A stretch of DNA of 64,000 nt from an uncultured delta proteobacterium (GTDB lineage Bacteria; Desulfobacterota; Desulfobacteria; Desulfobacterales; SG8-13). Below the pieces are notes generated by a model. That model saw only the letters and a program-made list of their open reading frames with translations. It did no database searches and was not told the origin of the DNA. Made by a program: the position numbers and the translations under genes. Positions 10,812 to 48,985 of the stretch are shown piece by piece. The DNA lies in the NCBI GenBank assembly GCA_963848135.1, contig CAWKCK010000018.1:572938-636937 (forward strand), written 5' to 3'. Numbering within the stretch: the first letter of the stretch is position 1; the number at the start of each line of letters is the position of its first letter.

Positions 10812-11198
10812 CGAATAGCCCTGATACCAACTTGCGGGAAATATCTACCTGCTTTTACTCTTATGGTAACGATAAAAGTTGGTTACGTTGGTAGATAATC
10901 CTACACTCCTCGGTCAGTTCTGTGCACCACTCACTGCGGAATATCGCTAACAGTCTTCAGCCAGCGTCAATCTATCAAAACCGCGAAATTTTATATCATT
11001 ACTTGAACGCCAATATTCTTACGGATACCATATGGCAATATAACCTTTTATTCAATAGCCTGAATTGTGTCTTCCGTGCCTAAACCTAAAATTCCAGATC
11101 GCCTGAAAAATTTCAATTCCAGATGAAATATTCAGTTTAAGGAAATTGAAGATATGTATCTATTTGGGGATAAACTTGGGGTTTTTAGGACTTGCACG

Positions 11199-11340
11199 TT
11201 CTTGCCAATAAATGAATTTTCAGTTTCCAAGGTTATTCTAAGGTTAGAATCTATCTATCTCAAGGTTCTGAGGTACACTCGCAGTTGCGATTAATAGACA
11301 TAAGCGTGAGTCGGTCAGAATTTGTGTTTTGTTGGAGATA
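11199..11340. repeat. ~140-bp intergenic repeat, copy R1
   Basis: TTCTTGCCAATA at 11199; GCGTGAGTCGGTCAGA..TTTTGTT at 11304; spacing matches R2. Confidence 0.75.
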
Positions 11341-11616
11341 CTAATGGGGTTAAAAGCCACCCGACATGTAGAAATCTTGAACCCTTAATTAACGCCCACG
11401 GATGGAATATAGTGTTGGGTAGGAAATGACCTCCTTAGTATCTATAATTTCATCTCTAAGCCCACCACCTCAATATCTTGTATAGCCCTAAAAATTAAGA
11501 TAAGCGTGGTCTAATACCAACAATCCACGCCTTTTATCTGAAGAGTCCTTGTCAACATTGATACAAAGAGGATGCCCTGACTATCAAGCAAATAATTATA
11601 TACCTGGGCGTCTCCT

Positions 11617-13059
11617 TCAGTCGTGGCTCTCTCCTTCAGGTATATAGGTAACGGTTTCTCCTTTCAACATTTTCAACTTTAGCTGGCGGTTATCATCGTT
11701 GGCCAGGTATAATGTGCGACTTGGAAAAGCAAAGTCGATACCCTCATCATTAAATCTTCTTAATACCATCAGACAGGTTCGTTGCAGCCATTCTTGCATA
11801 TCCCAGTAATTTGCCGGATGATACCAGGCAATCACCGATATATTCAGACTCCAATCATTGAATCCATTAAAGTAAACCCGTGGCGGAAAGTCTGGATGCA
11901 TTCCTTCGTGATTGGCCAGTATTTCCTTTATGATTGATACGGCCTTTTCCACTCTGTCTGGTGGTGTGTCATAGGTTATTGTGATATTAGTTAGCCACCT
12001 GATATGAGGGCGTTTGCCGATATTTTCCAAGCCCGAATTAACAATTTTTTCATTGGGGATCGTCACTAAGTGTCCGGTCAACGTTCGGATACGCGTACTA
12101 CGAAAGCCCACACCCTCAACAACACCATCGTAATTTTCAATCAAGATACGTTCACCAACCTGGAAGGGTTTGTCAAACAGAATGGTCAGAGTACCAAAAA
12201 AATTAGCAATCGAATCCTTGGCTGCCAATGCGATAGCTATTCCACCGATGCCCAGAGAGGCAAGTAAGGGGCCAATATTAACACCGGTTAAATTCTGTAT
12301 GATTAAAAGGCCTCCGATTATGACAATGAAGACCCGCAGAGTCTTGCCGGCTAGCGGGGCCAAGACATCATCAATGGTACTATCCGTTGAGGCAGCCCAC
12401 TTTTTAAGGTGAAAATCCACGATAGATACCAGCTTGAAAATGAACCAAACTATCGCGACGGCCCCACCTAAATCAGCAGCTTTCTGTGCAATGGTAAGAA
12501 CTAAATTGGTTCCATCAGGTTTTCGAAAATGCACAAACAACGGGGTCAGAACAAGATATATTCCATAGATCCATATAAACATTGACAATGGGTTGGCTAT
12601 TGTCTCCAAAAAAAGGTATTTTATTTTTTTTTCTTCTTTTTCTTTTTCTGCTTTTCTCCTTTTGCGATCAAGAACCAGACGCACAATTCGTTCAATTATC
12701 AATACAACAAAAAGCAGTAAAAGACTTAGTATTAGTTTGAGCCACGTAATGCCTGCAAATGCCTTCGCATCTATCCAGCCCCCAATGCGTGAAGATGCTT
12801 GTTGAGTAAAATTATCGATTTGTTGTCCGACTTTTTCACCGGCCACGTCAACCTTTGTAGGCTCTTCAGGTATCTCTTTTGCTGGGAGGTCAGATGGTGA
12901 TTCGGTTTTTGATTTAGTTTCTGCAGACGTTGTCGTTTGGACTTTTTTAGTATTAGATTCGACGCTTTGCCCCCGGGCTGGCAAATAAAAAGTGAGTACT
13001 AAAAAAATTACCAGAATGGGAAATGATATACAGCAAAGTCTTTTTACAGTTAAACACAT
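11617..13059 (-). CDS. MscS family mechanosensitive channel
   Basis: LASLGIGGIAIALAAKD, DKPFQVGE, VGFRSTRIRT, IPN and FAFPS motifs; GGAGG before ATG 13059. Confidence 0.92.
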   Translation of the reverse strand: MCLTVKRLCCISFPILVIFLVLTFYLPARGQSVESNTKKVQTTTSAETKSKTESPSDLPAKEIPEEPTKVDVAGEKVGQQIDNFTQQASSRIGGWIDAKAFAGITWLKLILSLLLLFVVLIIERIVRLVLDRKRRKAEKEKEEKKIKYLFLETIANPLSMFIWIYGIYLVLTPLFVHFRKPDGTNLVLTIAQKAADLGGAVAIVWFIFKLVSIVDFHLKKWAASTDSTIDDVLAPLAGKTLRVFIVIIGGLLIIQNLTGVNIGPLLASLGIGGIAIALAAKDSIANFFGTLTILFDKPFQVGERILIENYDGVVEGVGFRSTRIRTLTGHLVTIPNEKIVNSGLENIGKRPHIRWLTNITITYDTPPDRVEKAVSIIKEILANHEGMHPDFPPRVYFNGFNDWSLNISVIAWYHPANYWDMQEWLQRTCLMVLRRFNDEGIDFAFPSRTLYLANDDNRQLKLKMLKGETVTYIPEGESHD

Positions 13060-13267
13060 TCTCCCCTCCATTTTTACTGATGACCACAAGAAAAAGAGTA
13101 GCAGCTGGTTTTATAGAGAAATAGGCGCCGAATAGCATACCTCAACTGTGAATCCTCATTGCAAATAGAAAAGGCAGACCACAACATCTTGTGTTTACCA
13201 TTTTGTTGCCAAGATAGTGATACATTGAGAGTAACTGGTAAAAACCAGATTCGTCAAGGCTCGTACC

Positions 13268-13410
13268 TTCTTGCCATAACCGTAACTCACAGTCATTACG
13301 CTAAGTGTAACGATACGGTCTGGCAATCTAAGGAAATCGACTATTTAATAGCTCAGAGATCGTAGCAGAGGGCGTGAGTCGGTCAGATCTTGTGTTTTGT
13401 TAGAGGTATA
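13268..13410. repeat. ~140-bp intergenic repeat, copy R2 (most complete)
   Basis: TTCTTGCCA..ACGATACGGTCTGGC..ATAGCTCAGAGATCGTAGCAGA..GCGTGAGTCGGTCAGA..TTTTGTT. Confidence 0.8.
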
Positions 13411-13435
13411 TGCAATTTCATTGGTTTGAGAATCA

Positions 13436-15109
13436 TCATTTCTTTTTATCAGAATTTACTAAATCTTCCTCAATTTTTACGGCCACTATAGTTATGTCAT
13501 CTTCTATTGCAGAATCTTTTTGGAATTGATCCAGGGCAGAAAAGACTGCTTCGATTATTTCCTTAGCTTTTTTAACGGAATTTTTGCGTATGATTTCATA
13601 TAGTCGCTCTTTGCCAAAAATCTCTCCAGCTCGATTGTGCGCCTCCCAGACTCCGTCAGTGCTTAGAACAATGATTTGACCCTTAGCAAGATCCAGTTTT
13701 TCGTTTAACTCATATCGCCAGTTTTTGTCCACACCGAGTGCGATACCATTGCCTTTCAAATCTTCGAATGTATTTGTAGCAGGGTCGTAAAAGATGCCAG
13801 GATCATGCCCCGCACGTACCCACTGTAAACTTTGTTTTTCGGGATCAACGGTTAGATAAAACAGTGTCATAAACTGCCCCGAATCCTCGACATCGCGAAC
13901 CAGTTGATAATTTACATCGGAGATTATTTGTGCGGTGCTACCCGGAAGAGATAAGCGTTGCCGCAATGAAGAACGGGCCGTAGCCATAAGCAGAGCGGAA
14001 GGAATGCCATGGCCTGAAACATCACCAATAGCCACGCCTATCTTTTTATTCTTGGCCTCATCAATTGTAATAAAATCGTAATAATCGCCACCGGTTTCAT
14101 CACAATATATGCTTCTGCCTGCTATATCCAATCCTTCGATTTTCAGATTACCTTTTGGTAAAAGATTCTGTTGGACTTCCATTGCCAGGTCAAGTGATTG
14201 GCGCATCCTGTCTCGTTCTATGAGGCCATCGGTCATTTCGTTAATTACATCGCCGACATATCCGATTTCATCGTTGGAAGTAACTTTAACTCGCGAACCA
14301 AACTTGCCAATCGTTACTTGTTTTAAAACGACCACCATTGCATCCAAGGATTTTTTCAAGTTCAGAGCCACAATCAGGACCAACCCACCACCAATAGCCA
14401 CAACAACCGGAATTAGCATCCACAAACCGGTAGTAAGCATTTCAAGTGAATCGATCGCATTGCGACCGGAAATGGCAACACGATATAGGCTGGTAAGGAT
14501 CGCTAAAAAAGGTATTAGATTGATGGCTACAAAGACCGCAAATAGTCGTACAGTAAGATTGATCCGCCGGGTGCCCTTAACATCGTATAATTTCCCTCTG
14601 GGGAATACATAGGGTGCCAGGTACGATTGTAAAATCCGTTCAAGCAAAAAGAAAGCTATCGTGGTTGATACCAGACCAGTCAATAATGCATCAAACCGGT
14701 TCATACTTATTTCTTGCCACGAAAGACCAAAGTTACGTTCAAAGGCGGCAAAGGTTATCCCTGCCAGAATCCAAGCGGCCATATCCATACCAATAATAAC
14801 AAACGGTTCGTTTAATAATCTTTTTTTAACCCTTGATTCGAGTTCAGAGGATATTGGGGCGTCGGACCACAGTTTTTCATAATAGCCACGAATAGGCCAC
14901 TCGTACAAAATAATAAACATAAAAAATAAAGCAAAGATGGGACCAAAATAGTTGGCAGTACGAATGTGAAACTCAACATATTTATCCGACTGATAGCCTC
15001 GTAAGATAAACTCGTAGATTACATAGAGCAATCCAGCTCCAATGGCTGTTGCCAATAGATTGGCCGTAAACATGGCGTTTTTCAGGCAAAAAAGACGAAA
15101 CCGTGTCAT
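13436..15109 (-). CDS. Membrane HAMP-domain SpoIIE/PP2C (RsbU-like) phosphatase
   Basis: TM helices; HAMP (NDEIG); GGDYYD, GDVSGHG, AGH, TDG and DDIT motifs. Confidence 0.92.
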   Translation of the reverse strand: MTRFRLFCLKNAMFTANLLATAIGAGLLYVIYEFILRGYQSDKYVEFHIRTANYFGPIFALFFMFIILYEWPIRGYYEKLWSDAPISSELESRVKKRLLNEPFVIIGMDMAAWILAGITFAAFERNFGLSWQEISMNRFDALLTGLVSTTIAFFLLERILQSYLAPYVFPRGKLYDVKGTRRINLTVRLFAVFVAINLIPFLAILTSLYRVAISGRNAIDSLEMLTTGLWMLIPVVVAIGGGLVLIVALNLKKSLDAMVVVLKQVTIGKFGSRVKVTSNDEIGYVGDVINEMTDGLIERDRMRQSLDLAMEVQQNLLPKGNLKIEGLDIAGRSIYCDETGGDYYDFITIDEAKNKKIGVAIGDVSGHGIPSALLMATARSSLRQRLSLPGSTAQIISDVNYQLVRDVEDSGQFMTLFYLTVDPEKQSLQWVRAGHDPGIFYDPATNTFEDLKGNGIALGVDKNWRYELNEKLDLAKGQIIVLSTDGVWEAHNRAGEIFGKERLYEIIRKNSVKKAKEIIEAVFSALDQFQKDSAIEDDITIVAVKIEEDLVNSDKKK

Positions 15110-16400: not shown

Positions 16401-16576
16401 AAACCGATTTCTCCCAGAATCTGTGATATATTGAGACTATAAGGAACTTGTGGGGTGGGTCAATAATTTTGCTTGCTTGATAATCATTTAAAAGGCACCT
16501 CCTAATCGCAAATGACACAGCGATTCGTTATAAAGGGTTAACCCCAATCATAACCCTATAACGAAGGAGGTGCCCT

Positions 16577-17596
16577 ATGGAACTGTACGCCGGTCTGGAT
16601 CTTCATTCAAGAAATACCTACATCGGAATCATGGACGATGCATTGAACCGTGTCTTCAAAAAACGTGTATCCAATGACCTTGACCAAATTCTTCATACTT
16701 TAAAACCCTTCAAAAAACGATTAAAGGGATTTGTTGTAGAGTCCACCTACAACTGGTACTGGCTCGTAGATGGCCTCATGGATGCGAGATATGGCTCTGC
16801 ACACTTGGCCAACCCGTCGGCAATCAAACAATACGAAGGGCTAAAGTACAGTGACGATCAGCATGACGCCTTTTTTCTGGCCCAACTTCTCATACTCGGT
16901 ATTTTGCCCGAAGGCTACATTTACCCAAAGCAACATCGCCCGGTGCGGGACCTGGCACGCAAACGGATGTTTTTAGTCCGGCACAAGACCGCGAACATCT
17001 TGAGCCTGCAATCGCTCATTCAAAGATGCTGTGCAGTAAAAATAAGCACCAGTGACATCCGAAAGATAAACGTCGAAGCATTGGAAAGGTGGCTAAAAGA
17101 AGAGTACCTGATTTTCTCTGCTCAAACCAGTTTGGATACAATCAACTTTCTGAAGCAGAAGATTAAACATTTAGAGAAGGCGATCATACAGAGAGTCAAA
17201 CTCAATAAAGGGTTCAGGCAACTGCTGACAATACCCGGTATCGGTAAAATTATGGCTATGACTATCATGCTGGAAGTGGGTGACATCAATCGTTTTCCAA
17301 AGGTCGGCAATTTTGCTTCCTACTGTCGGTGCGTGCCATCCAAGCGGTTGTCCGACGGAAAAAGCAAGGGGTGTGGCAATCGTAAAAACGGCAATCGCTA
17401 CCTGAGCTGGGCCCTCACTGAAGCCGCTCAATTGGGCCGTCGGTATAATGAACAGTTTAGACGATACTATAACCGCAAGGTTGCTCAGGCCAATACCAGC
17501 CTGGCGACCAAAGCGCTGGGCAACAAACTGGCCCGCATCTGCTACTATATCATGAGAGATCAGGTTCCCTTTCGTGAGGAGCTTCTTGCGCAATAG
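16577..17596 (+). CDS. IS110-family recombinase/transposase
   Basis: GLDLH, VEST and KYSDDQHDA (DEDD motif); TIPGIG; SDGK; GNRYL. Confidence 0.95.
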   Translation: MELYAGLDLHSRNTYIGIMDDALNRVFKKRVSNDLDQILHTLKPFKKRLKGFVVESTYNWYWLVDGLMDARYGSAHLANPSAIKQYEGLKYSDDQHDAFFLAQLLILGILPEGYIYPKQHRPVRDLARKRMFLVRHKTANILSLQSLIQRCCAVKISTSDIRKINVEALERWLKEEYLIFSAQTSLDTINFLKQKIKHLEKAIIQRVKLNKGFRQLLTIPGIGKIMAMTIMLEVGDINRFPKVGNFASYCRCVPSKRLSDGKSKGCGNRKNGNRYLSWALTEAAQLGRRYNEQFRRYYNRKVAQANTSLATKALGNKLARICYYIMRDQVPFREELLAQ

Positions 17597-17900
17597 TTTG
17601 GGACTGCAGCGGTGATCCTTTGCTATTGGTGGTTAAAATCCCTATTGCTTGGTTGGCCACCGCTGCTCTCCCTACAAAATAGATTCAGGCGGGTGTCCGC
17701 TTTTTCGATCTGCCCTTGTCATAAGCTCGCAATGGCTGGCCCGAAAGGAGCCCTATCTCTTGTGACAACCCAATTGGCTTTGACAAGGTACCGATTTTTT
17801 CTGGGGTCTGGTTTCGGACCAGGGGCTTTAGATATTCTCTCTTTGGCCTTGATCCTGATGGGTGCCTGTTAGCAGATTAAGTGACGCTGCATAGCAAACA
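17597..17900 (+). ncRNA. Putative seekRNA / bridge-RNA region
   Basis: Stem gcagcggtg/caccgctgc (17606-17666) encloses target-matching segments; donor-like ATGGGTG at 17858. Confidence 0.55.
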
Positions 17901-18116
17901 AAAAGAAATTTCGGGAGCAGGTAAAAAAAATTGGACGAACGTCGAGCTGAATTTTGTTCCTGCAAAAAATATACCCCTTTTGCGATGGCGTGGTGTTTTT
18001 TGTTGACGGAAGCCTTTTAATGGGTGCCACAGGCACAACTATCGGAAATCATACCACCTGTTACGATATGATCTGGCTATCACAGTCTTTTCAATGATTC
18101 CTGAACTTTCCTTAGA

Positions 18117-19974
18117 GGCAAGTAGCGCGGAGGAGTCTCACCCCTACGCCCTCCAAGAACCGTACGTGACAGTCTCCCGTCATACGGCTCCTACTGTCCA
18201 GCCGAAGGCCGGAAGCCAAATCCCCAGGATGCGAGCAGTCTGGGTTCCCGACGGGCTATACGTCCCAACCAATGGGCCGCCCTTCGCCAATGACCTCGCA
18301 GTCTTTTGTATTTCCGCATGGCCCAACGTACCAATGCATTTTGAATCTGACGTAAGATGGGATAAAGTGCTGTTTTGCGAAATTTGCCATAGTAATTCAA
18401 CCAACCTCTAACCACGGGGTTGATTCGTTTGGCAATATCCTCCAAAGAAGCGGAACTCCACAATTGCAATTTCCACCCTCTTATTTTTGCACCCATCTCT
18501 TTGACGGCTGATTTGCTGACCGCTGGTGTAAAACCCACAAAGCAATTCCGCCCCTTACACAAACGAGCACGAAATTCATAGCCGAGAAAATCAAAACTCT
18601 CGTGCATGTAACTTCCCGGGCGTGTGGCGTTCTTACAATAGACAATCTTCGTCTTCTGCGGACTCAATTTTAACTTACACCGCGCCAGCCGCAGTTCAAT
18701 GGCTCTCAACATAAATTTTGCTTGAAATTCCGTACGGCAATGCACAATGATGTCATCCGCATACCTCGCAAATACAGCAATCGGATGGCTTACTCTCATC
18801 CATTCATCAAACACATGGTGAAGAAAAATATTGGCCAGCAAGGGGCTAATTACACCCCCTTGGGGTGTGCCCTTTTCTCTTTCGATTAGGCTGCCATCTG
18901 CCAGCTGTGCTGGAGCTTTTAGCCACCTCTCTATGTAGAGCAATATCCACCTGCTATTCGTATGTTTCCTCACTGCATGTAACATCAGATTGTGGTCAAT
19001 TTCATCGAAAAACCCTTGGATGTCTAAATCCAACACCCAGCCATACCTCCAGCACCGCTTGCGAACCACGGCCACCGCATCAAGTGCCGATTTGCCGGTT
19101 ATATAACCATAAGAGTCCGCATGAAATATCGGTGCCACTTGTGGCTCCAGATACATCTTGACCACCATTTGCGCCACACGGTCCGAGACAGCTGGTATAC
19201 CCAACCTTCTGGACCGCCCATCACGCTTGGGAATATCTACCGTACGAACTGGCGGTGGGAAATAGCTTCCCGAGGACATGCGATTCCAGACTTTATAAAG
19301 ATTGTCTTTGAGATCGACCTCAAAGTCTTCAATCGACTGCCCATCGACGCCCGCCGCACCGCGGTTTGCTTTTACCCGACAAAACGCCTCCCAAACGGCA
19401 TGCTTGGAAATACTATACGGCTTTGTTTTAGTCACCGGTTCCTCCCATCTCTGGTTGACCTTGTCACTAAAACCGGACAGCACAACCCCTTCGCTCCATC
19501 TGCATTACACAGACTTCATCACTACTTCGGGTTGTTCCGCCCCCGTGTCCCGCATCGGTACTCTCACGCTTGTGGGTCCGCCACTTGCGTTTCTCCCTTA
19601 ACATCGAGACGACAGGTTCCCACGTTCCATACAAAAGCCTGAATCAAGGTCATGCCATCTTTATGCCGGACGCCGCCCAGACAGTAAGCAGGTGGCCTCT
19701 GGGCTTATCCTGGGATTCTGCTAGTACCCCAGTTTTGACGTCATCTCTGCCTTTTCGACACCTCAGCAATGGTTCGCTCGCGCTCATCTCCTTGATTCAT
19801 ACCTGATCCCGTCAAGCGAGACCTTTTCCTTAACGCTCACCACCCTGGCTCTTTACCAGCGCAGCTTAAGGTGGTTTGAAACCTGCTCCTGCAAGCCGGT
19901 TCCGAGGGGCCTACCCTCATCTTTTGTACAGTTACACACACTCTATTTATATTTAAAGTGCGCTCGTGGCACAC
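18117..19974 (-). mobile_element. Group II intron (RmInt1-like, probably bacterial class D)
   Basis: 5' GTGTGC at 19974; domain V GAGCCGTATGACGGGAGACTGTCACGTACGGTTC; domain VI ends ...CTACTTGCC. Confidence 0.92.
18191..19435 (-). CDS. ltrA: Group II intron reverse transcriptase/maturase without an endonuclease domain
   Basis: GAAGVDG, GTPQGGVISPLLANI, RYADD, FDFLG and GWLNYY motifs; GTG start after GAGG (ORF open to 19483). Confidence 0.93.
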   Translation of the reverse strand: MTKTKPYSISKHAVWEAFCRVKANRGAAGVDGQSIEDFEVDLKDNLYKVWNRMSSGSYFPPPVRTVDIPKRDGRSRRLGIPAVSDRVAQMVVKMYLEPQVAPIFHADSYGYITGKSALDAVAVVRKRCWRYGWVLDLDIQGFFDEIDHNLMLHAVRKHTNSRWILLYIERWLKAPAQLADGSLIEREKGTPQGGVISPLLANIFLHHVFDEWMRVSHPIAVFARYADDIIVHCRTEFQAKFMLRAIELRLARCKLKLSPQKTKIVYCKNATRPGSYMHESFDFLGYEFRARLCKGRNCFVGFTPAVSKSAVKEMGAKIRGWKLQLWSSASLEDIAKRINPVVRGWLNYYGKFRKTALYPILRQIQNALVRWAMRKYKRLRGHWRRAAHWLGRIARREPRLLASWGFGFRPSAGQ

Positions 19975-20160
19975 TAGCAGCAAGCGTGAGCCGGTCAGAC
20001 CTTATGTTTTGTTTACAGTATCTGGGTTTTCAGGGGATCGATTCTATACAGATATTATTCGGCTAAATTAATTGTGAGACTAAAATCACCAAGAATTGTA
20101 TTACCAACGACAGAAGCAAATCCAGCACTAGCTTTGCCTATACTACTAATGATATTTCTA

Positions 20161-21126
20161 TCATTTTTTTCTAAGTTTTTTTCTAATGCCAAATAAGCCA
20201 ATTATCCCGGAACCCAAAAGCCATAAGGCTCCTGGAATAGGTACCTGTGAAGTTTCTGTCAAAAAAACACCTGACGCAGATTCAAAGGTAATTCCTTCAG
20301 GAACTGTAATAGAAAATTGTCCAGTATTCATAAAATTAGCATAGCCTTCATACACAGTAACTGAGAGGGAACCGCGAATTGAAAGATCTAATGGATCCCA
20401 TCTTGCACTGGGATTTAAGTTAATTAACCATGATGGAGGACCAGCACTGGGATCCATCCATATCGTTCTACTCAAAGTGGCCGCTCCATCTGATATATCA
20501 TCACTCCACTCAGTCGGGGAATTTGTACCTGTGATGAAACCATCGGGGCCTCCTATTGCGTAATTGATCATAGTGGAACCACCCACACCGTTAGGACTTA
20601 AAAAGCCATCTACCACCCATTCCAATTCTACTGGAAAAGGTTCGGTTGCACCGGAGAAGTGCAAAGTATCAAGCAATTCCGAACTAGCAGAAAAGGCAGC
20701 ACCCCAAGAGTTTATATCTACTGGCCCGTCTCCAAAATCGTAATAAACTTTTCCTGTTGAATCTGCACTGACTCTCAATTTTCCTGTAGAAGCAAAAACA
20801 CCTGCTGAAGCATTTCCGTCGTACTCAACCCAAGCATAACCTGGGTTCGCAACCCAATAGTTATATGAACCTGAGAGACTATATGATGCGGTCGCCATTC
20901 CTGAACCAATGTTCGTGTTAGCTTCACTTATATTACCACCTGCATCATTCGGGTATGTATATACGCCAGCTGTAGCAGTTGCCCTATTATAATCAGTAGG
21001 GAAAATATATGAATGAGCGTTTATTGGTAAGATAAAAATTGTAACCGATAAAAAGAATGTAATACATAGAAGAGATATTCTACGCTTTAATGCAAATTCC
21101 TTAATATGATATGATTCCTTAGCCAT
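20161..21126 (-). CDS. VPLPA-CTERM (PEP-CTERM-like) exosortase substrate
   Basis: Signal peptide; C-terminal VPIPGALWLLGSGIIGLFGIRKK. Confidence 0.85.
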   Translation of the reverse strand: MAKESYHIKEFALKRRISLLCITFFLSVTIFILPINAHSYIFPTDYNRATATAGVYTYPNDAGGNISEANTNIGSGMATASYSLSGSYNYWVANPGYAWVEYDGNASAGVFASTGKLRVSADSTGKVYYDFGDGPVDINSWGAAFSASSELLDTLHFSGATEPFPVELEWVVDGFLSPNGVGGSTMINYAIGGPDGFITGTNSPTEWSDDISDGAATLSRTIWMDPSAGPPSWLINLNPSARWDPLDLSIRGSLSVTVYEGYANFMNTGQFSITVPEGITFESASGVFLTETSQVPIPGALWLLGSGIIGLFGIRKKLRKK

Positions 21127-21224
21127 AGATACCTCCTCTGAGTATAATGACTCTAAACTTTGAAAAAAGTTCAGGTAAAGGACTAAGTATTCTGTTAACA
21201 AAAAATGCAAGACCACCCAGATGT

Positions 21225-21305
21225 TAGGCAACCCGACTATCTATCAGCTTTGCTAAGACCCTTGGTTTTCCGTTCTGGCTTTTTAGCAAGGTTGGCTTTA
21301 TCTGT
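21225..21305 (-). promoter_or_regulatory. c-di-GMP-I (GEMM-I) riboswitch, degenerate
   Basis: GATAAAGCCAACC..ACGGAAAACC.AGGGTCT..GATAGTCGGGTTGCC, upstream of the VPLPA-CTERM gene. Confidence 0.7.
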
Positions 21306-21550
21306 TCTGCAAAATAGCTGCAAAAACCATGCTAATTGAAAGAGTATTGGTTGGGTAAATATAGAAATAATATAAGCAGGTTATTTAATGTGCTACATGG
21401 TAGCAGTATTGAATTGGGAATAAAATTATAGAAATTTATGAAGAGAGTTCCACAATTGTAGTAGCTTTTCAGTATCTGCACAATTGCAAAATTTCAGATA
21501 CGTACAGATAAATCACAAAAATTTTAGCGCTCCAAAATATTCGCCTTTCT

Positions 21551-21744
21551 TGATAATCATCTAAAAGGCACCTCCCAATCGCAAAGGGTATTGCGATTCG
21601 TTATAAAGGGTTAATCCCAAACATAAACCCTATAACGCAGAAGGTGCCTCATGGAACTGTATGCCGGTCTGGATCTTCATTCAAGAAATACGTACATCGG
21701 AATCATGGATGATGCATTTAACCGTGTCTTCAAAAAACGTGTGG
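21551..21744 (+). mobile_element. Truncated second IS1111 copy: left end plus ~31 codons
   Basis: Homologous to 16478-16670; MELYAGLDLH starts at 21651. Confidence 0.88.
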
Positions 21745-21847
21745 CCAATAGCGTAACAATTTGTAATTTAGGCAAATATGTAAATATTGTCTGACTATCT
21801 CAAGCGGATCGACCAGATGATAGCTCAAAAATCATAGCAAATAGAAA
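21745..21847. repeat. ~140-bp intergenic repeat, copy R4 (its TTCTTG lies at 21547-21552)
   Basis: CCAATAGC..GTCTGACTATCTCAAG..ATAGCTCAAAAATCATAGCAAATAGAAAAA; CCA to TAGCA distance is 90 nt. Confidence 0.7.
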
Positions 21848-26486: not shown

Positions 26487-26765
26487 TTACAACTTAACAG
26501 CCGCGCTGAGTTTCTTCCCGGCTTTGAATTTCACAGCATTTCTGGCCTTGATCTTGATGGCTTCGCCGGTCTGCGGGTGCCGCCCCTTGCGCGCCTTCCG
26601 GCGTGTTTTTTGGAATGTACCGAAGCCCACTAGCGTCACCCGGCTGTCCTTCTTTTTAAGAGCCTTGGTGACCCCGTCCGTAAAGGATGCAAGGGCTTTT
26701 CCCGCCGCAGCCTTTGAAATCCCCGCGTCCTTTGCCATCTACTCGACCAATTCAGCTTTCGTCAT
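26487..26765 (-). pseudogene. hup: HU family DNA-binding protein with an amber stop at codon 9
   Basis: MTKAELVE*MAKDAGISK..LVGFGTF..GRHPQTG; TAG at 26739-26741. Confidence 0.85.
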
Positions 26766-26772
26766 CTAATTT

Positions 26773-27848
26773 CCTGCGTCGGGGCCGTCTGTGGACGAAG
26801 AACAATATCCTTACCATCACCGGTGATGAATCCTATGTGGGTCGGTACTACTTTAACAAAACCAGTGGGCGTGAAAAGAAGCCGAACCCGAAATCTGAAT
26901 GGATACTCATCCCCTTAAAGCCGATTATAGATGAGTCCACCTGGAACCGGGCCAAATCTCTGAAGGAGAGTCGCAATCCGATCACGGCCCGGGTCAATCC
27001 CTCGGCCACAACCTCAAAAACCCTTCTTACCGGTATAGCCAAGTGCGGCCTGTGCGGGGCCAGTTTCGCTCTTGAAACCGCTAAAGGTGGTAGGTACACC
27101 TATTACAACTGTGCCAATTATTTCCGCAAAGGCAAAGCCACCTGCCCGGGCCAGCGCATCGCCGCCGACAAGCTGGAGGCGGCGGTCATTGACCACCTAA
27201 CTGCCCGATTGTTTTCCAGGAGCCGAATCAAGAAGCTCCTTGCAGGCGCGCACAAACAACTCGGTCGTGCAAGCAAAAAAGCCGATGCAAGCCACAATCG
27301 GTTGATTGTTGATTGGTCAACTCAATGATGTAAAGCACCGGTTGACCCGGCAATACGAGGCCATCGAATCAGGCTAACTGGAGCTTGAGCTTGTCGCCGA
27401 ACGGATCCGGGAGCTGAAGAACAAAAAGGACACGCTCGAGAGTTCCATCGACCGATTGAGCCGAACGAAGCCCCCTCCCCCGCATCTATTCCGGGACGAA
27501 ACAATCGTGCAGTTTCAAGAAATTGTAGACGGCGCGTCCCGCAATGGGTCCAACCTCCGGACAGTGAAGCGCTATCTGCGATTGTTCATAGAGAGGATCA
27601 CGATCAGGCTGCCGGTGGTGGAAATTGAGGCGAACACGAAGGGTATTTTGGCGACCATACAAAATAAAAAAGCTGTAAGAGCCGAAGTTCTTACAGCAAG
27701 TATTCCTTGGCTCACCGAGGGCTACGAATGTGAGAACATAAAATACGCATTTATTTTATATGGTTACGATGATAGGGTTATTCCCAGACCAAAGGTTTCC
27801 CAATTATCCGGTCAAATTCCTTCATGTAGACACCACCGAGCAATTTAA
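26773..27848 (+). pseudogene. Large serine recombinase, 3' part, frameshifted (copy 1)
   Basis: LLTGIAKCGLCG zinc ribbon and YYNC; 26773-27713 is a near-identical copy of 47983-48915. Confidence 0.85.
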
Positions 27849-31530: not shown

Positions 31531-31943
31531 AATATGTCATACCAACCAAACTACTGATCAAAAAATTGGTTTAGTTCATGATTCTTGTTACCATTGAATC
31601 ATCTTGCCAATCGGACACTCTTGTGTCGTGTCGCTTCAATTAAACATCCCATCCAGCAGCCAATACCCGCTCAACGTTCACAGCGTGCAACCACATCCCT
31701 CTCTTAACCTTTTCGGGTCCTCCGGAATATATAAAAGGCTGTGGGTCGGCAACGCCCAGGATTTTCACACTTAAAAATTTTCTTAATTATATACAATAGG
31801 ATCCTCAGGATCCGGATACCATCGCAACACTTACAACTTCAACAAACAGGGACCGAGGCTAATTTTATGCAGGCCGAGGTCGATAGGATAATTTTTTATT
31901 TTAGAAATGTTATAAACCTTTGACGTGAACTGACGGCAGAAAA

Positions 31944-32048
31944 GTTACGGTACGAAATGGCTATCACTTACCCATATCAGAGGGTAGAACTTTTGTTAGA
32001 TAGCAGATAGAAAAACTTCGGTTCTGTTCAAGCTTTGTTGGAGATATC
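31944..32048. repeat. ~140-bp intergenic repeat, degenerate copy R5
   Basis: gttacg.ta.ga..tggctatcac-N19-gaacttt..ttagatagcag aligns without gaps to 18060-18116 joined to 19975. Confidence 0.7.
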
Positions 32049-32097
32049 AAAAGGTTCCAAGGAAAATAAATACGGGTATTTACTGTATTAGAAATTG

Positions 32098-35090: not shown

Positions 35091-35198
35091 TTCTTGCCAA
35101 TAGACTAATTATCGAAAATTGCGTCAAGTATCACGATACCGTCTGGCTAAATTCAGGAAATTCGCTGATTGATAGATGCCGAAAAATAGCAGATAATT
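35091..35198. repeat. ~140-bp intergenic repeat, copy R6, cut by IS481
   Basis: TTCTTGCCAATAG..ACGATACCGTCTGGC..AGGAAAT..TAGCAGA. Confidence 0.75.
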
Positions 35199-35374: not shown

Positions 35375-36541
35375 ATGGCCAGCGTTGATATTTTATACTC
35401 AAACCCTAACCACGTCCACGGTTGCCACCCGCAGAGCCGCCAAAGTCATTTAGAATCTATTGATTTAACCTCACAGCACCAAGTCACCCAGGCCGCACTA
35501 AACTCGTTTTATCCATCAAGTGCAAGCCGGACCGATAGCCGCGGCGTCACCCTGGGCAAGGTTTTTCGCCGGCTTAATCGCTGCAGCTACCCGGGTAAAC
35601 AGCCACTGACCGAATGGATACTTTATAAATACCGGCGCGGCTGCAAGCCGGTAACCCTGGCCACCAATTGCGGCTTTATTGTGCCCTTTTTGGTGTTTAT
35701 CGGCCAAATGGGCAAGACCGGTGTCGAGCAGATCAACAAGAAAGATCTGGAAGCCTACATCGAACGCCAGCAAGACCGCGGTCTAAAACCGCTGACCATT
35801 GATGGCACTTTAAGGAGCATCTACGCTTTTATCGGCTATCTGGTTGAAGCTGATCTTTTGCCAGCCGATCTGCTGGTAAAAAAAATCCGGATCCAGGTGC
35901 CCAAGCCGCTGCCCCGGGCGATGGATCCGATCGATAGCCAGCGTCTTTTGGCCACGATTGACAACATCCGTGACCGGTCCCTGATCCTGTTGCTGCTTCG
36001 AACCGGAATGCGCATCGGCGAGCTTTTAAACACCCGTGTCGATGATCTCAATCTGGTCGACCAGAAGATCTTCATTATGATCGGAGAGAAAAATCGTCTG
36101 GGCCGCGCGGTGTGTATCAGCGATGATGCCTGCAGCGCTTTAAAGGCTTGGCTGCGCATCCGCGATAGCAGTCAGAAGTATTTGTTCTATGGGCTAAGGC
36201 GTCAACCGTTGGGGTATTCGCGTTCGCGTGACATACTGCGATCCTATCTTAAAAAGGCCGGCCTTGCTCACAAAGGATATACGTTGCATTGCCTGCGGCA
36301 CACCTTTGCCACCGATCTTTTAAATGCCGGCATGCGCCTTGAGTGTCTGCAGCAGTTGCTGGGGCACAGCAGCCTGGAGATGACCCTACGCTATGCCCGG
36401 CTGACCGATAAAACCCGGGAAGAAGAATACTATAAAGCCATGTCACGCATCGAAAAAGGAGCCGTCGATGAACATCACCGATTCGATCATCAACTACCGC
36501 CGATATTTGAAAAGACGCAACTGTTCAGCCAGCACGGTTAG
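35375..36541 (+). CDS. Tyrosine recombinase A
   Basis: TGMRIGE, K, HCLRH, LGH..RY: full catalytic set. Confidence 0.92.
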   Translation: MASVDILYSNPNHVHGCHPQSRQSHLESIDLTSQHQVTQAALNSFYPSSASRTDSRGVTLGKVFRRLNRCSYPGKQPLTEWILYKYRRGCKPVTLATNCGFIVPFLVFIGQMGKTGVEQINKKDLEAYIERQQDRGLKPLTIDGTLRSIYAFIGYLVEADLLPADLLVKKIRIQVPKPLPRAMDPIDSQRLLATIDNIRDRSLILLLLRTGMRIGELLNTRVDDLNLVDQKIFIMIGEKNRLGRAVCISDDACSALKAWLRIRDSSQKYLFYGLRRQPLGYSRSRDILRSYLKKAGLAHKGYTLHCLRHTFATDLLNAGMRLECLQQLLGHSSLEMTLRYARLTDKTREEEYYKAMSRIEKGAVDEHHRFDHQLPPIFEKTQLFSQHG

Positions 36542-37355
36542 AAGTTATTTGAGCCACCTGAAGCAGTTAATCATCTGGCTCGATGAGCCCATCGAGCTCG
36601 TCGGTCATAAAAAAATTACTTCCTATGTCGATTATCTTCTCGGCAATAAACTGGCGCCGAAGACCATCAACTGCCACCTGGGAAGCATGCACAGCTTTTA
36701 CAGTTATCTAGTCGATCAAGAAGAACTTCAGATCACCAATCCGATCAAAAAGGGCTACCACCTGCGCCTGGCCCGGCCTTTGCCAAAACACCTGCAGGAT
36801 GAGCAGGTGGCCAGTTTGTTCAGCATAATAAAAAGTCGTCGCGATCGGGCCATGTTCATGCTGATGCTGCGCTGCGGTCTAAGGGTGAAAGAAGTGGCCA
36901 ACCTGACTATCGATGCCGTCGACTGGCGCCGCAGACGCTTGTATGTCTACCATGGCAAAGGCGATAAGGACCGGGTCGTCTACATCAGTGATGACACCTA
37001 CGCTGCGCTGGTTGCCTATGTAAAACAACGATTGGGCAGTCGCGTGAAGAAGATCTTTCTGGTAGAAAAAGGCGTCTACAAGAGCAAGCCCTTATCTACA
37101 CGCGGTATCCGCAAGCGTATAGAGTACTACTCGAAAAAGTCGGGTGTAAACGTGTCCTGCCATCAGCTCAGGCATACGATGGCCACCCAGCTGCTCAACG
37201 CCGATGCGGATCTGGTGACTATACAGGATCTTTTAGGCCATACCCGCATCAAGACCACCCAGCGCTATTGCCGGGTGTGCAACCTGAAGGTTCAACGTGA
37301 TTACTTTAAGGCGATGGAGGTGGTGATGAGACGCGCTGTAGGTTCGTCCCCCTAA
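36468..37355 (+). CDS. Tyrosine recombinase B
   Basis: CGLRVKE, GKGDKDR, HQLRH, LGH..RY. Confidence 0.92.
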   Translation: MNITDSIINYRRYLKRRNCSASTVRSYLSHLKQLIIWLDEPIELVGHKKITSYVDYLLGNKLAPKTINCHLGSMHSFYSYLVDQEELQITNPIKKGYHLRLARPLPKHLQDEQVASLFSIIKSRRDRAMFMLMLRCGLRVKEVANLTIDAVDWRRRRLYVYHGKGDKDRVVYISDDTYAALVAYVKQRLGSRVKKIFLVEKGVYKSKPLSTRGIRKRIEYYSKKSGVNVSCHQLRHTMATQLLNADADLVTIQDLLGHTRIKTTQRYCRVCNLKVQRDYFKAMEVVMRRAVGSSP

Positions 37356-47375: not shown

Positions 47376-48924
47376 GAGCACCGGCAAGCAAGCGGAGAAG
47401 GACTTGTCCATACCAGATCAGATCCATCAGATGAAAAAGTGGTGAAAGGAACGCGGATACCGGGTTGTCAGTGAGTTTGTAGAGCCGGGCGCCTCGGGCC
47501 GTGATGAGAACCGGCCGGTATTCCGGGAGATGGTGGCCCGGGCTATAGGTCGTGACCGGCCCTTTGATTTGATTGTCACTCTCACCACCAGCCGGTTCTT
47601 TCGCGATGCCACCGGCGCCAGGATCTGGAAACGAAAGCTCGGCAAAGCCGGAGTACGAGTGATGGCGATGCATCTACAGGTTGCCGATGATCCCATGGGA
47701 ACGTTTGTGGAGGGAGTCTTCGAATTGATCGATCAGTATGAAAGCGACATCAACGGATTCCATACACTGCGAGCTTTGAAGGAAAATGCTCGCCAAGGCT
47801 ATTAAAACGGTTCAAAACCAAAATTCGGTTTCAAAACGGTAAAGGAGAATGGGTAAGGAACGGACCAAATCACGACTATCCGTCGACCCTGTCGAAGCCG
47901 GGATCGTAAAACGAATATATGCTAAATATGCGGCCGGTGCCGGGGCAAAGTCTATCGCCAATGAACTTAATCAGGAAGGCTACCTGCGTCGGGGCCGTCT
48001 GTGGACGAAAAACAATATCCTTACCATCATCGGTGATGAATCCTATGTGGGTCGATACTACTTTAACAAAACCAGTGGGCGTGAAAAGAAGCCGAACCCG
48101 AAATCTGAATAGATACTCATCCCCTTGCAGCCGATTATAGATGAGTCCACCTGGAACCGGGCAAATCTCTGAAGGAGAGTCGCAATCCGATCACGGCCCG
48201 GGTCAATCCCTCGGCCACAACCTCAAAAACCCTTCTTACCGGTATAGCCAAGTGCGGCCTGTGCGGGGCCAGCTTCGCTCTTGAAACCGCTAAAAGTGGC
48301 AGGTACACCTATTACAACTGTGCCAATTATTTCCGCAAAGGCAAAGCCACCTGCCCGGACCAGCGCATTGCCGCCAACAAGCTGGAAACGGCCGTCATTG
48401 GCCACCTAACTGCCCGACTGTTCTCCAAGGACCGGCTCAAGAAGCTCCTTGAAGGCGTTTACAAACAAGTTGGACAAGCAAACAACCGGGCCGATGCAAG
48501 CCACAATCGGTTTATTGGACAACTCAATGATGTATAGCACCGGCTGCCCCGACAATACGAGGCCATCGAATCGGGTGAGTTGGAGATTGAACTTGTGGCC
48601 GAACGGATCCGGGAGCTGAAGAACAAAAAGGACACGCTCGAGAGTTCCATCGACCGCTTGAGCCGAACGAAGCCCCCTCCCCCGCATCTATTCCGGGACG
48701 AAACAATCGAGCAGTTTCAAGAAATTGTAGACGGCACGTTCCGCAATGGGTCCAACCGCCGGACAGTGAAGCGCTATCTGCGCTTGTTCATAGAGAGGAT
48801 CACGATCCGGCAGCCAGTGGTGGAAATTGAGGCGAACACGAAGGGTATTTTGGCGACCATACAAAATAAAAAAGCTGTAAGAGCCGAAGTTCTTACAGCA
48901 AGTATTCCTTGGCTCCTCGGGTAG
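47371..48924 (+). pseudogene. Large serine recombinase (copy 2) with several stops and frameshifts
   Basis: RVSTGKQ..SIPDQ, SRFFRD, recombinase domain and zinc ribbon; reads into the tRNA 3' end. Confidence 0.88.
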
Positions 48925-48985
48925 GACTCGAACCTACAACCTAGTGGTTAACAGCCACCCGCTCTGCCTATTGAGCTACCGAGGA
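48910..48985 (-). tRNA. tRNA-Asn (GTT)
   Basis: TCCTCGG..CTGTTAA..GTTCGAGT..CCGAGGAGCCA, a 76-nt cloverleaf. Confidence 0.97.

Follow-up and report, generated by a model that had tools for sequence, protein, structure and literature searches.

An RmInt1-like group II intron with a probable homing site at one position of a multicopy intergenic repeat in an uncultured Desulfobacterales bacterium

Group II introns persist in bacteria by homing to multicopy sites where an insertion does no harm, among them insertion sequence (IS) elements, terminators and integron attC sites. Here we report the analysis of a group II intron on the minus strand of a 64,000-nucleotide (nt) stretch of DNA (hereafter referred to as the window; G000:C18:572938–636937) from the 6.03-Mb genome of an uncultured Desulfobacterales bacterium, which is assembled in 18 contigs (C1, C5, C17 and C18 below are contig labels). 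The element is very probably an RmInt1-type mobile intron, still active or active until very recently, that homes to a fixed point of a co-oriented, multicopy intergenic repeat. Three copies in this genome represent three independent insertions at one register, the exon-binding sites (EBS) of the intron covary with the exons across its relatives, and sister introns with other EBS occupy other blocks of the same repeat.

Intron anatomy and protein

The intron is full length, spanning 1,858 nt (18117–19974, −) from 5′ GUGUGCC to 3′ ...CUACUUGCC. Its ends were set by comparing three copies with uninterrupted copies of the repeat, and they bear out the proposal of a first-pass annotation of the window, made from the sequence alone, that the intron lies in repeat copy R3 at taga^tagcag on the + strand (the caret marks the insertion point). 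The core of domain I (D1) matches Rfam RF01999 at 19801–19918 (114.9 bits), and domains V and VI (D5 and D6) match RF00029 at 18116–18192 (54.3 bits). The 5′ GUGUG begins at 19974 and, as read by eye, the bulged A of D6 lies 7 nt before the 3′ end. Domain IV accommodates the gene for the intron-encoded protein (IEP; 18191–19483, −), a reverse transcriptase (RT) with a maturase (X) domain, which consists of 430 residues, has the YADD motif and ends in LGRIARREPRLLASW. A Pfam search of these 430 residues returned RVT_1 (residues 84–304, 1.4e-37) and GIIM (residues 327–405, 1.5e-17) only, and no D/En endonuclease domain. The closest relatives of the IEP come from metagenome-assembled genomes (MAGs) of Desulfobacterales.

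The element therefore combines ribozyme ends and D5/D6, an RT/maturase open reading frame (ORF) in domain IV and EBS pairings with intron-binding sites (IBS) in the exons, as in mobile group II introns, and its sequence indicates an intact, well-built RmInt1-like intron that is probably active. It has the orientation of the neighbouring genes and starts 187 nt past the stop of an ORF at 20161–21231 (−), and its precursor RNA could come from read-through transcription of this upstream gene.

Three insertions at one register

A BLAST comparison with the genome identified two further near-identical copies, one at C1:220953–222811, which is 99.9% identical to the window copy, and one at C18:454338–452912 (L088), which has an internal deletion of 431 nt. 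All three are preceded by ...AAGGTCYGACCGRCTCACGCYTGCTGCTA (also written ...GACCGRCTCACGCYTGCTGCTA) and followed by T, that is, they share the same CTGCTA^T point in three different repeat copies. Their 3′ exons differ (TCTAAGG, TGAACCC and TTAAGCG) and their outer flanks are unrelated; the three copies are three independent insertions at one register. In the window copy, the 5′-exon target (19975–19985, −) comprises IBS1 CTGCTA (19975–19980; −1 to −6), a G at −7 and IBS2 GCTT (19982–19985; −8 to −11), and exon/EBS3 comparison gives T at +1 (18116, −) as IBS3. The deletion in L088 covers intron nt ~407–837, is flanked by an 11-nt direct repeat and has removed the start of the IEP gene; this copy could be a natural ΔORF derivative mobilised in trans.

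Public reads neither support nor contradict splicing or mobility. Parts of the window occur in 20 of 24 runs; among contigs from four runs none joins 18116 to 19975, and no piece in those four runs spans the intron locus. In run X1, loose ends at 19975/19976 lead on into repeat sequence that has no insertion, but these may derive from other copies or organisms, and contigs from an RNA run, possibly DNA-derived, cover D1 at 90% likeness.

To delineate the repeat, the empty site was reconstructed and used to start an iterated nhmmer profile, which yielded 82 hits in the genome, in co-oriented clusters on four contigs. The insertion block is covered by 55 hits, with CTGCTA exact in 40 and bearing one mismatch in 13.

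Exon-binding sites located by covariation

The covariation set comprised 33 introns: the window intron (hereafter A), a relative B from the same genome (C18:548644–546417; 79–82% identical to the window intron, with an intact 475-residue ORF), and the 31 of 80 relative loci with a placeable 5′ end that retain 20 nt or more of 5′ exon; 49 loci were left out because their 5′ end is unclear. For each block of the intron, the best helix with its own exon was scored against those with the exons of other introns, with 2,000 permutations.

EBS1 is UAGCAG (19718–19723, −; intron nt 252–257), in the terminal loop of the Id hairpin and in the same alignment column as RmInt1 EBS1. The first-pass annotation had named a loop UAGCAGA (19717–19723, −) as the partner of IBS1 CTGCTA, and this pairing is upheld: UAGCAG is complementary to CUGCUA, the six bases that end the exon, A19717 would add a seventh pair where exon position −7 is T, and the loop (nt 248–262) scores 5.64 with its own exon against 3.55 with mismatched exons, the former value being reached by 0 of 2,000 permutations. 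EBS2 is AGGC (19749–19752, −; nt 223–226), in the internal loop GUCGAAA-AGGC-AGAGAU, and pairs with GCYT at −11 to −8. This loop (nt 216–232), which aligns with RmInt1 EBS2 AUGAA, scores 4.47 with its own exon (−7 to −16) and 3.71 with mismatched ones, again with 0 of 2,000 permutations reaching the own-exon value. AGGC forms four pairs, one of them G–U, with GCUU of the two C18 copies, and four Watson–Crick pairs with GCCU of the C1 copy. A congeneric genome carries an intron (G006:C4) that is 99% identical over the first 400 nt and has EBS2 AGGU behind a 5′ exon ...ACTTACTGCTA; its exon reads ACUU where that of the window reads GCUU, so that a compensatory change has replaced the C–G pair at −11 by U–A. 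Introns of B type use the same EBS2 register, pairing UAUC with GAUA or GAUG at −11 to −8.

EBS3 is A19661 (−; nt 314), the A between GGCAUA and AGAUGG. Among the 27 introns with placed 3′ ends, its column is Watson–Crick-complementary to exon position +1 in 25 and forms G–U in 2, with all four bases represented; the window intron, with A at EBS3, therefore needs a target with T at +1. The consensus fold of 29 D1 sequences (the covariation set minus four near-duplicates and L021, plus the pSymA intron of S. meliloti) contains 94 pairs, 76 of them with compensatory changes. EBS1, EBS2 and EBS3 are all unpaired in it, with EBS1 in a terminal loop and nt 216–232 in an internal loop between two covarying helices. 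Covariation thus establishes the three EBS positions.

The first-pass annotation had placed EBS2 elsewhere, at AGCGU (19833–19837, −), pairing with ACGCT at −13 to −9. The complementarity is real, extending to 5–7 pairs with ACGCUUG, and the exon side is conserved as that annotation had observed: GCGTGAG.CGGTCAGA is common to R1, R2 and R3 (at 11304, 13372 and 19984), which therefore share ACGC. Even so, we regard this assignment as very unlikely. AGCGU belongs to UGAGCGUU, which is present in the Rfam consensus and is invariant or at least 90% conserved in the 29 aligned relatives, including RmInt1, although their 5′ exons are unrelated. Folding domain I, the check that the annotation had itself proposed, puts EBS1 in a loop as expected but GAGCG in the Ic arm, as a 5-nt bulge that precedes EBS1 by 110 nt. 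The block (nt 134–145) does not covary with the exon (3.64 with its own exon, 3.73 with mismatched ones; 1,803 of 2,000 permutations reach the former value). We presume that UGAGCGUU, or this bulge, may be the ε′ region. The EBS2 of RmInt1, as defined experimentally (PMC4075523), aligns to another place, and AGGC takes the role instead. Two further candidates for pairing with the exon were rejected: GAGCGCGAGCG (nt 186–200) as EBS2, which does not covary (3.41 against 3.46; 1,379 of 2,000 permutations), and AAGCGUGAG (~19563–19571), a 9-nt complement of CUCACGCUU that by eye lies ~150 nt past EBS1, beyond D1.

Sister introns on other blocks of the repeat

Related introns with different EBS occupy other positions in the same repeat. 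B-type introns have EBS1 UUGGAG, EBS2 UAUC and EBS3 G; B itself is inserted at ...GCGTTACTGATGTCTCCAA^CGTATCAAACG, the 5′ edge of a repeat copy, and B-type introns in three other genomes (L005, L006 = L100, L103) occupy GATAnCTCCAR^C. Near-identical empty B-type sites exist in the genome studied here, for example at C17:1233793. For L009 (EBS1 UCAGAC) the insertion point is ...AACATAAGTCTGA^C; its match to AACATAAGGTCTGA^CC in the type I module is short and less certain. An antisense type is represented by two introns of genome G007, 80% and 77% identical, with EBS1 UAGCCA(G) and EBS2 AUCGUAU and AUCAUAU, respectively. They are inserted at GATATGATCTGGCTA^ and GTTATGGTCTGGTTA^, on the opposite strand of the best-conserved repeat block GATAGCCAGATCNTATCGT, and the first has CTTGCCA upstream at the expected distance. 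The antisense word TGGCTAT occurs 39 times in or near the 82 repeat hits, 10 of these in the longer form GAYCNGGCTAT.

Introns with EBS1 UAGCAG and a readable flank comprise the three copies in this genome, G006:C4, judged by its 5′ exon, and L010 from another MAG, judged by its 3′ exon. L010 is 98.5% identical to A and begins at intron nt 12, with the 3′ part of the repeat as its 3′ exon (nhmmer E=0.0035). All lie at ...CTGCTA^ in repeat-like sequence, and the pattern that the first-pass annotation had named as fatal to its proposal, the same EBS in unrelated targets, was not seen among them. More distant relatives are inserted in unrelated targets but with different EBS, so that such targets are to be expected. 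A related sub-lineage (L018, L022, L023, L021, L019, L035 and perhaps L031; EBS1 AGUCGUU, EBS2 GCGUAG) is inserted right after R-Y/F-A-D-D codons, apparently in the YADD motif of other RT genes; these would be introns that home into other retroelements.

Repeat copies and empty sites

The window contains six repeat copies, all on the minus strand, of which R1–R4 and R6 were found by nhmmer and R5 by eye. R1 (11203–11340) has a degenerate A-type IBS1 (ATGTCTA) and a partial B-type site at its 5′ edge (..GTATCTCCAA^C). R2 (13272–13412) reads CTCAC GCCC T CTGCTA^C, with IBS1 matching at 7/7 positions, IBS2 at 3/4 and IBS3 mismatched. R3, which holds the intron, is divided into a 3′ part (18025–18116; TCTAAGG...GTGATAGCCAGATCATATCGT...GATAGTTG..TGGCA; nhmmer hit C18:591066–590962) and a 5′ module (19975–20024; CAGATACTGTAAACAAAACATAAGGTCTGACCGGCTCACGCTTGCTGCTA; nhmmer hit C18:592961–592906). 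R4 is represented by its 3′ part (21744–21841), followed by a remnant of an IS110-family element. R5 (31940–32050) has no nhmmer hit at E<=1e-3; its A-type IBS1 and T at +1 fit and its IBS2, TCTA, does not. For a B-type intron, the 5′ edge of R5, GATATCTCCAA^C, is a full match, with the cut between 32038 and 32037. R6 (35095–35197) reads ATTA T CTGCTA^T, with IBS1 at 7/7, a fitting IBS3 and 0–1 of 4 IBS2 positions. TAGCAGA is exact in R2, R5 and R6 (+ strand, at 13363, 32001 and 35187), as the first-pass annotation had stated; this word has 12 matches in the window against 4.39 expected, a count reached by 1 of 100 shuffles.

The same annotation had suggested that other repeat copies are empty homing sites, R2 being the best. 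Matching empty sites do exist, but R2 is not the best of them, as its IBS2 (GCCC) fits at three of four positions and C at +1 opposes the A of EBS3; R5 and R6 have IBS1 and T at +1 and lack IBS2. Genome-wide, CTGCTA occurs 1,047 times on both strands, 44 of them in repeat copies on the repeat strand, and 3 of these 44 are occupied. The 41 empty repeat sites include 33 with T at +1, 6 with GCYT at −11 to −8 and 4 with both (C1:68814, C1:224060, C5:40417 and C5:34435), and we consider C1:68814 and C1:224060 the best candidates. The corrected EBS2 and the assignment of EBS3 thus change which empty sites merit testing. All three occupied sites have the type I 5′ module, which accompanies 10 of the 41 without an intron (Fisher p=0.022); IBS2 lies within this module, so that the effects of the two are inseparable. 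The sense strand of every intron copy is the G-rich strand of its own contig, the expected lagging-strand template, which fits the insertion preference reported for RmInt1 (PMC8914252).

Proposed homing mechanism and alternatives

We propose that the excised intron RNA, together with the IEP, enters a repeat copy by reverse splicing, on the sense strand. Three RNA–DNA pairings would choose the site: EBS1 UAGCAG with CTGCTA (−6 to −1), EBS2 AGGC with GCYT (−11 to −8) and EBS3 A with T (+1). Contacts between the protein and the distal 5′ module (...AAGGTCTGACCGACTCAC) probably help, as may be compared with T−15 of RmInt1. Because the IEP lacks an endonuclease, complementary DNA (cDNA) synthesis is probably primed at the replication fork, as has reportedly been shown for RmInt1. 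In this scheme, splicing and current mobility are inferred, as are the part played by the distal module and priming at the fork. Relatives of the intron would have changed their EBS to reach other conserved blocks of the same repeat, which suggests that the repeat is a safe landing pad for a small intron radiation.

Several observations weigh against this interpretation. The genome contains eight unoccupied GCYT-N-CTGCTA-T sites, four of them outside repeats; although the numbers are small, pairing alone does not predict occupancy. The EBS2–IBS2 helix of the window copy scores 3.5, below the mismatched mean of 3.71, so the EBS2 call for this copy relies on homology and on the compensatory change in G006:C4, not on the strength of its own helix. 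The permutations disregard the relatedness of the introns, several of which share exons (for example, the YADD group), and the contrast between blocks is therefore the safer reading. Finally, the strand bias cannot be told apart from an effect of gene orientation within the arrays.

Two other explanations of the recurrent insertion were considered. The three copies could have spread at the DNA level, by recombination or duplication between repeat copies and not by retrohoming, as there is repeat homology on both sides of each, the arrays harbour tyrosine recombinases and IS elements, and one copy is internally deleted. This is improbable, given that the 3′ exons belong to three repeat sub-types with unrelated outer flanks and that each of the three copies has precise junctions, at GUGUG and at ...GCC; moreover, the junction exons match EBS1, EBS2 and EBS3 of the intron, and in another genome an EBS2 change tracks the exon. 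Alternatively, the intron could read a hairpin of the repeat instead of its sequence, as group IIC and IIC-attC introns do, an idea to which the integron-like setting and a short palindrome, GGTCTGACC, just upstream of the insertion point lend some colour. We find it barely credible, as the ribozyme is of IIB type, with EBS2 and with EBS3 in the coordination loop, the palindrome has a loop of only 1 nt, the intron is in the sense orientation, and sister introns with other EBS land on blocks that match those EBS.

Comparison with known introns

The label RmInt1-like, given in the first-pass annotation, is justified. The window IEP is 51.3% identical over 97% of its length to the ORF of an intron on pSymA of S. 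meliloti and likewise has no D/En domain, whereas pairwise identity to the other plasmid-borne IEPs compared is ~32–38%. The pSymA intron is flanked by ...GTTTTCATCGATGAGA^ and ^CCTGGACG and has the EBS2 loop AUGAA, T at −15 and G at +4. RmInt1 is described with IBS2 at −9 to −13, an A–T pair at −9, a U–A pair at −10 and critical T−15 and G+4 (PMC4075523); the pSymA intron has the features so described and thus serves as the anchor for the EBS columns of the window intron. The two introns share the EBS1 and EBS2 columns, occupied by UAGCAGA and AAGGC in the window intron, and have EBS3 in the same loop; D1 aligns throughout, both 3′ ends read ...CUACUYRMC, T−15 is present, and the target is multicopy and non-essential. 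They differ in that RmInt1, which has a class D ORF and a IIB ribozyme, homes into an IS, ISRm2011-2, and the window intron into an intergenic repeat between accessory genes, in the length of IBS2 (4 nt, −8 to −11, in the window intron; 5 nt, −9 to −13, in RmInt1) and at +4 (A and G, respectively). The class D C-terminal motif is LX3AX3PXLF[V/A]HW (PMC4615759, PMC3552965); the window IEP (LGRIARREPRLLASW) has six of the eight fixed positions (F->L, H->S), and the pSymA ORF matches exactly (LRKLARENPGLFVHW). With EBS2 present and EBS3 in the coordination loop, D1 is of IIB type, and by pairwise comparison the ORF is class D-like.

RmInt2, which targets the inverted repeats of ISRm17, and Sr.md.I1 are RmInt1 relatives with diverged targets (PMC4615759). 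As here, close relatives differ mainly in their EBS and use different repeated targets, and one target has sites on both strands; unlike them, the diverged relatives described here occupy different blocks of one repeat family in several genomes. The first-pass annotation had drawn a parallel with IIC-attC introns, which holds for the ecology, as both kinds are specialised on a repeated site between cassette-like genes, and fails for the mechanism: those introns have an IIC ribozyme without EBS2, read a stem–loop and lie antisense to the cassettes (PMC3001079), whereas the window intron recognises sequence as a IIB intron, shows no hairpin at its target and is in the sense orientation. UHB.I2 and H.ha.F1/F2 (CL1 and class E), found in integrons and clusters of attC sites lacking integrases (CALINs) of halophiles, are closer in being IIB introns in the sense orientation inside cassette arrays. 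They belong to other IEP classes, lie beside attC and occur as single or truncated copies, with no repeated insertion at one register reported (PMC7923331).

A search of the literature, with subscription journals outside its scope, found no description of an RmInt1-type or class D intron on such an intergenic repeat. The habit itself is known: RmInt1 and RmInt2 home to IS elements, IIC introns use attC, and IIB introns occur within cassette arrays (PMC7923331). What is new is a class D-like lineage on a repeat of this kind, and the retargeting of its relatives to several blocks and both strands of one repeat. The introns form a natural retargeting series in one scaffold, in which EBS1, EBS2 and EBS3 change and the rest is 77–99% identical; this should be useful for the targeting rules of RmInt1-type introns and for targetron design.

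Nature and distribution of the repeat

Among 40 other genomes searched, many of them incomplete, 9 contain the repeat. Seven of these belong to the same genus (15 searched), one to the rest of the family (4 searched) and one to the rest of the order (21 searched). The ORFs downstream of its copies are mutually unrelated; those in the window include one for a MalT/LuxR regulator, one for an MscS channel and one whose product has a PEP-CTERM-like tail. They speak against the repeat being the upstream region of one paralogous family. It was also rejected as attC, since no integron integrase reached the cut-off (31 TIGR02249 matches in the genome, all below it, the best at 93.5 against 265 bits) and conservation continues past the sole GTTRRRY-like word, so that core sites do not bound it. 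Single-strand folds of three full copies gave ~−20 kcal/mol per ~227 nt and no common hairpin. A sigma-54 promoter was discarded for want of a −12 element after TGGCA. A sigma-70-like TTGAC-N-TAnnnT follows TGGCAAG in only 13 of 54 copies, and a promoter consensus scan of 11050–13450 gave 3 promoter-like sites against 6.1 in shuffles. Those 13 copies continue into GAGTATTGACC-N16/17-TATAGT-CTCAATNTATC, which resembles a sigma-70 promoter facing the next gene (for example, 16426–16465, +, and C1:76439); the ends of this extension, CAGATAC...GTATCTG, form a short inverted repeat.

A broader reading, which we offer tentatively and hold to be possible rather than likely, is that the repeat marks the junction of a non-integron cassette system of Desulfobacterales, on which an RmInt1-like clade has radiated to at least four registers (in the sense orientation CTGCTA^T, GATAnCTCCAR^C and AAGTCTGA^C, and in the antisense orientation GATCTGGCTA^T), making it a shared haven for mobile elements and a vehicle of horizontal spread. 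If so, introns, an IS110 element and nested recombinases share one conserved site and may affect cassette expression and exchange. Whatever the merit of this reading, the introns mark the repeat as a hub for mobile elements, which bears on its own nature.

Other elements in and near the arrays

An IS110-family element (16478–18024, +) lies between TGGCA and AGCAAG of R3, with halves of the repeat on both sides and a transposase gene at 16577–17596 (Pfam). A remnant at 21551–21749 occupies the same point of R4, and of 54 repeat copies, 4 have the same IS110 end behind TGGCA; loci outside the window are C18:536852, C1:217511 and C5:42981. This recurrent insertion point indicates a second mobile element specific for the repeat, for which a non-coding RNA at its own end may serve as guide. 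Tandem tyrosine recombinase genes (two or three, Phage_integrase) lie in or beside the arrays, in the window at 35375–37355 (+), next to R6, and elsewhere at C5:47304–48942, C17:1220044–1221676, C18:549657–552141 and C1:235443–237045; we take their layout to resemble that of recombinase-in-trio elements.

The ORF upstream of the intron (20161–21231, −; 356 residues, no Pfam hit) is directly preceded by a c-di-GMP-I riboswitch (21224–21306, −; 52.8 bits), and its C terminus, VPIPGALWLLGSGIIGLFGIRKKLRKK, reads like a PEP-CTERM sorting tail. Farther along the window, three adjoining direct repeats (183, 300 and 300 nt; 93–96% identical) recur ~21.2 kb apart at 26773–27607 and 47983–48809; the first set overlaps a serine-recombinase-like ORF (26687–27328), and a tRNA gene (48913–48985) lies near the second.

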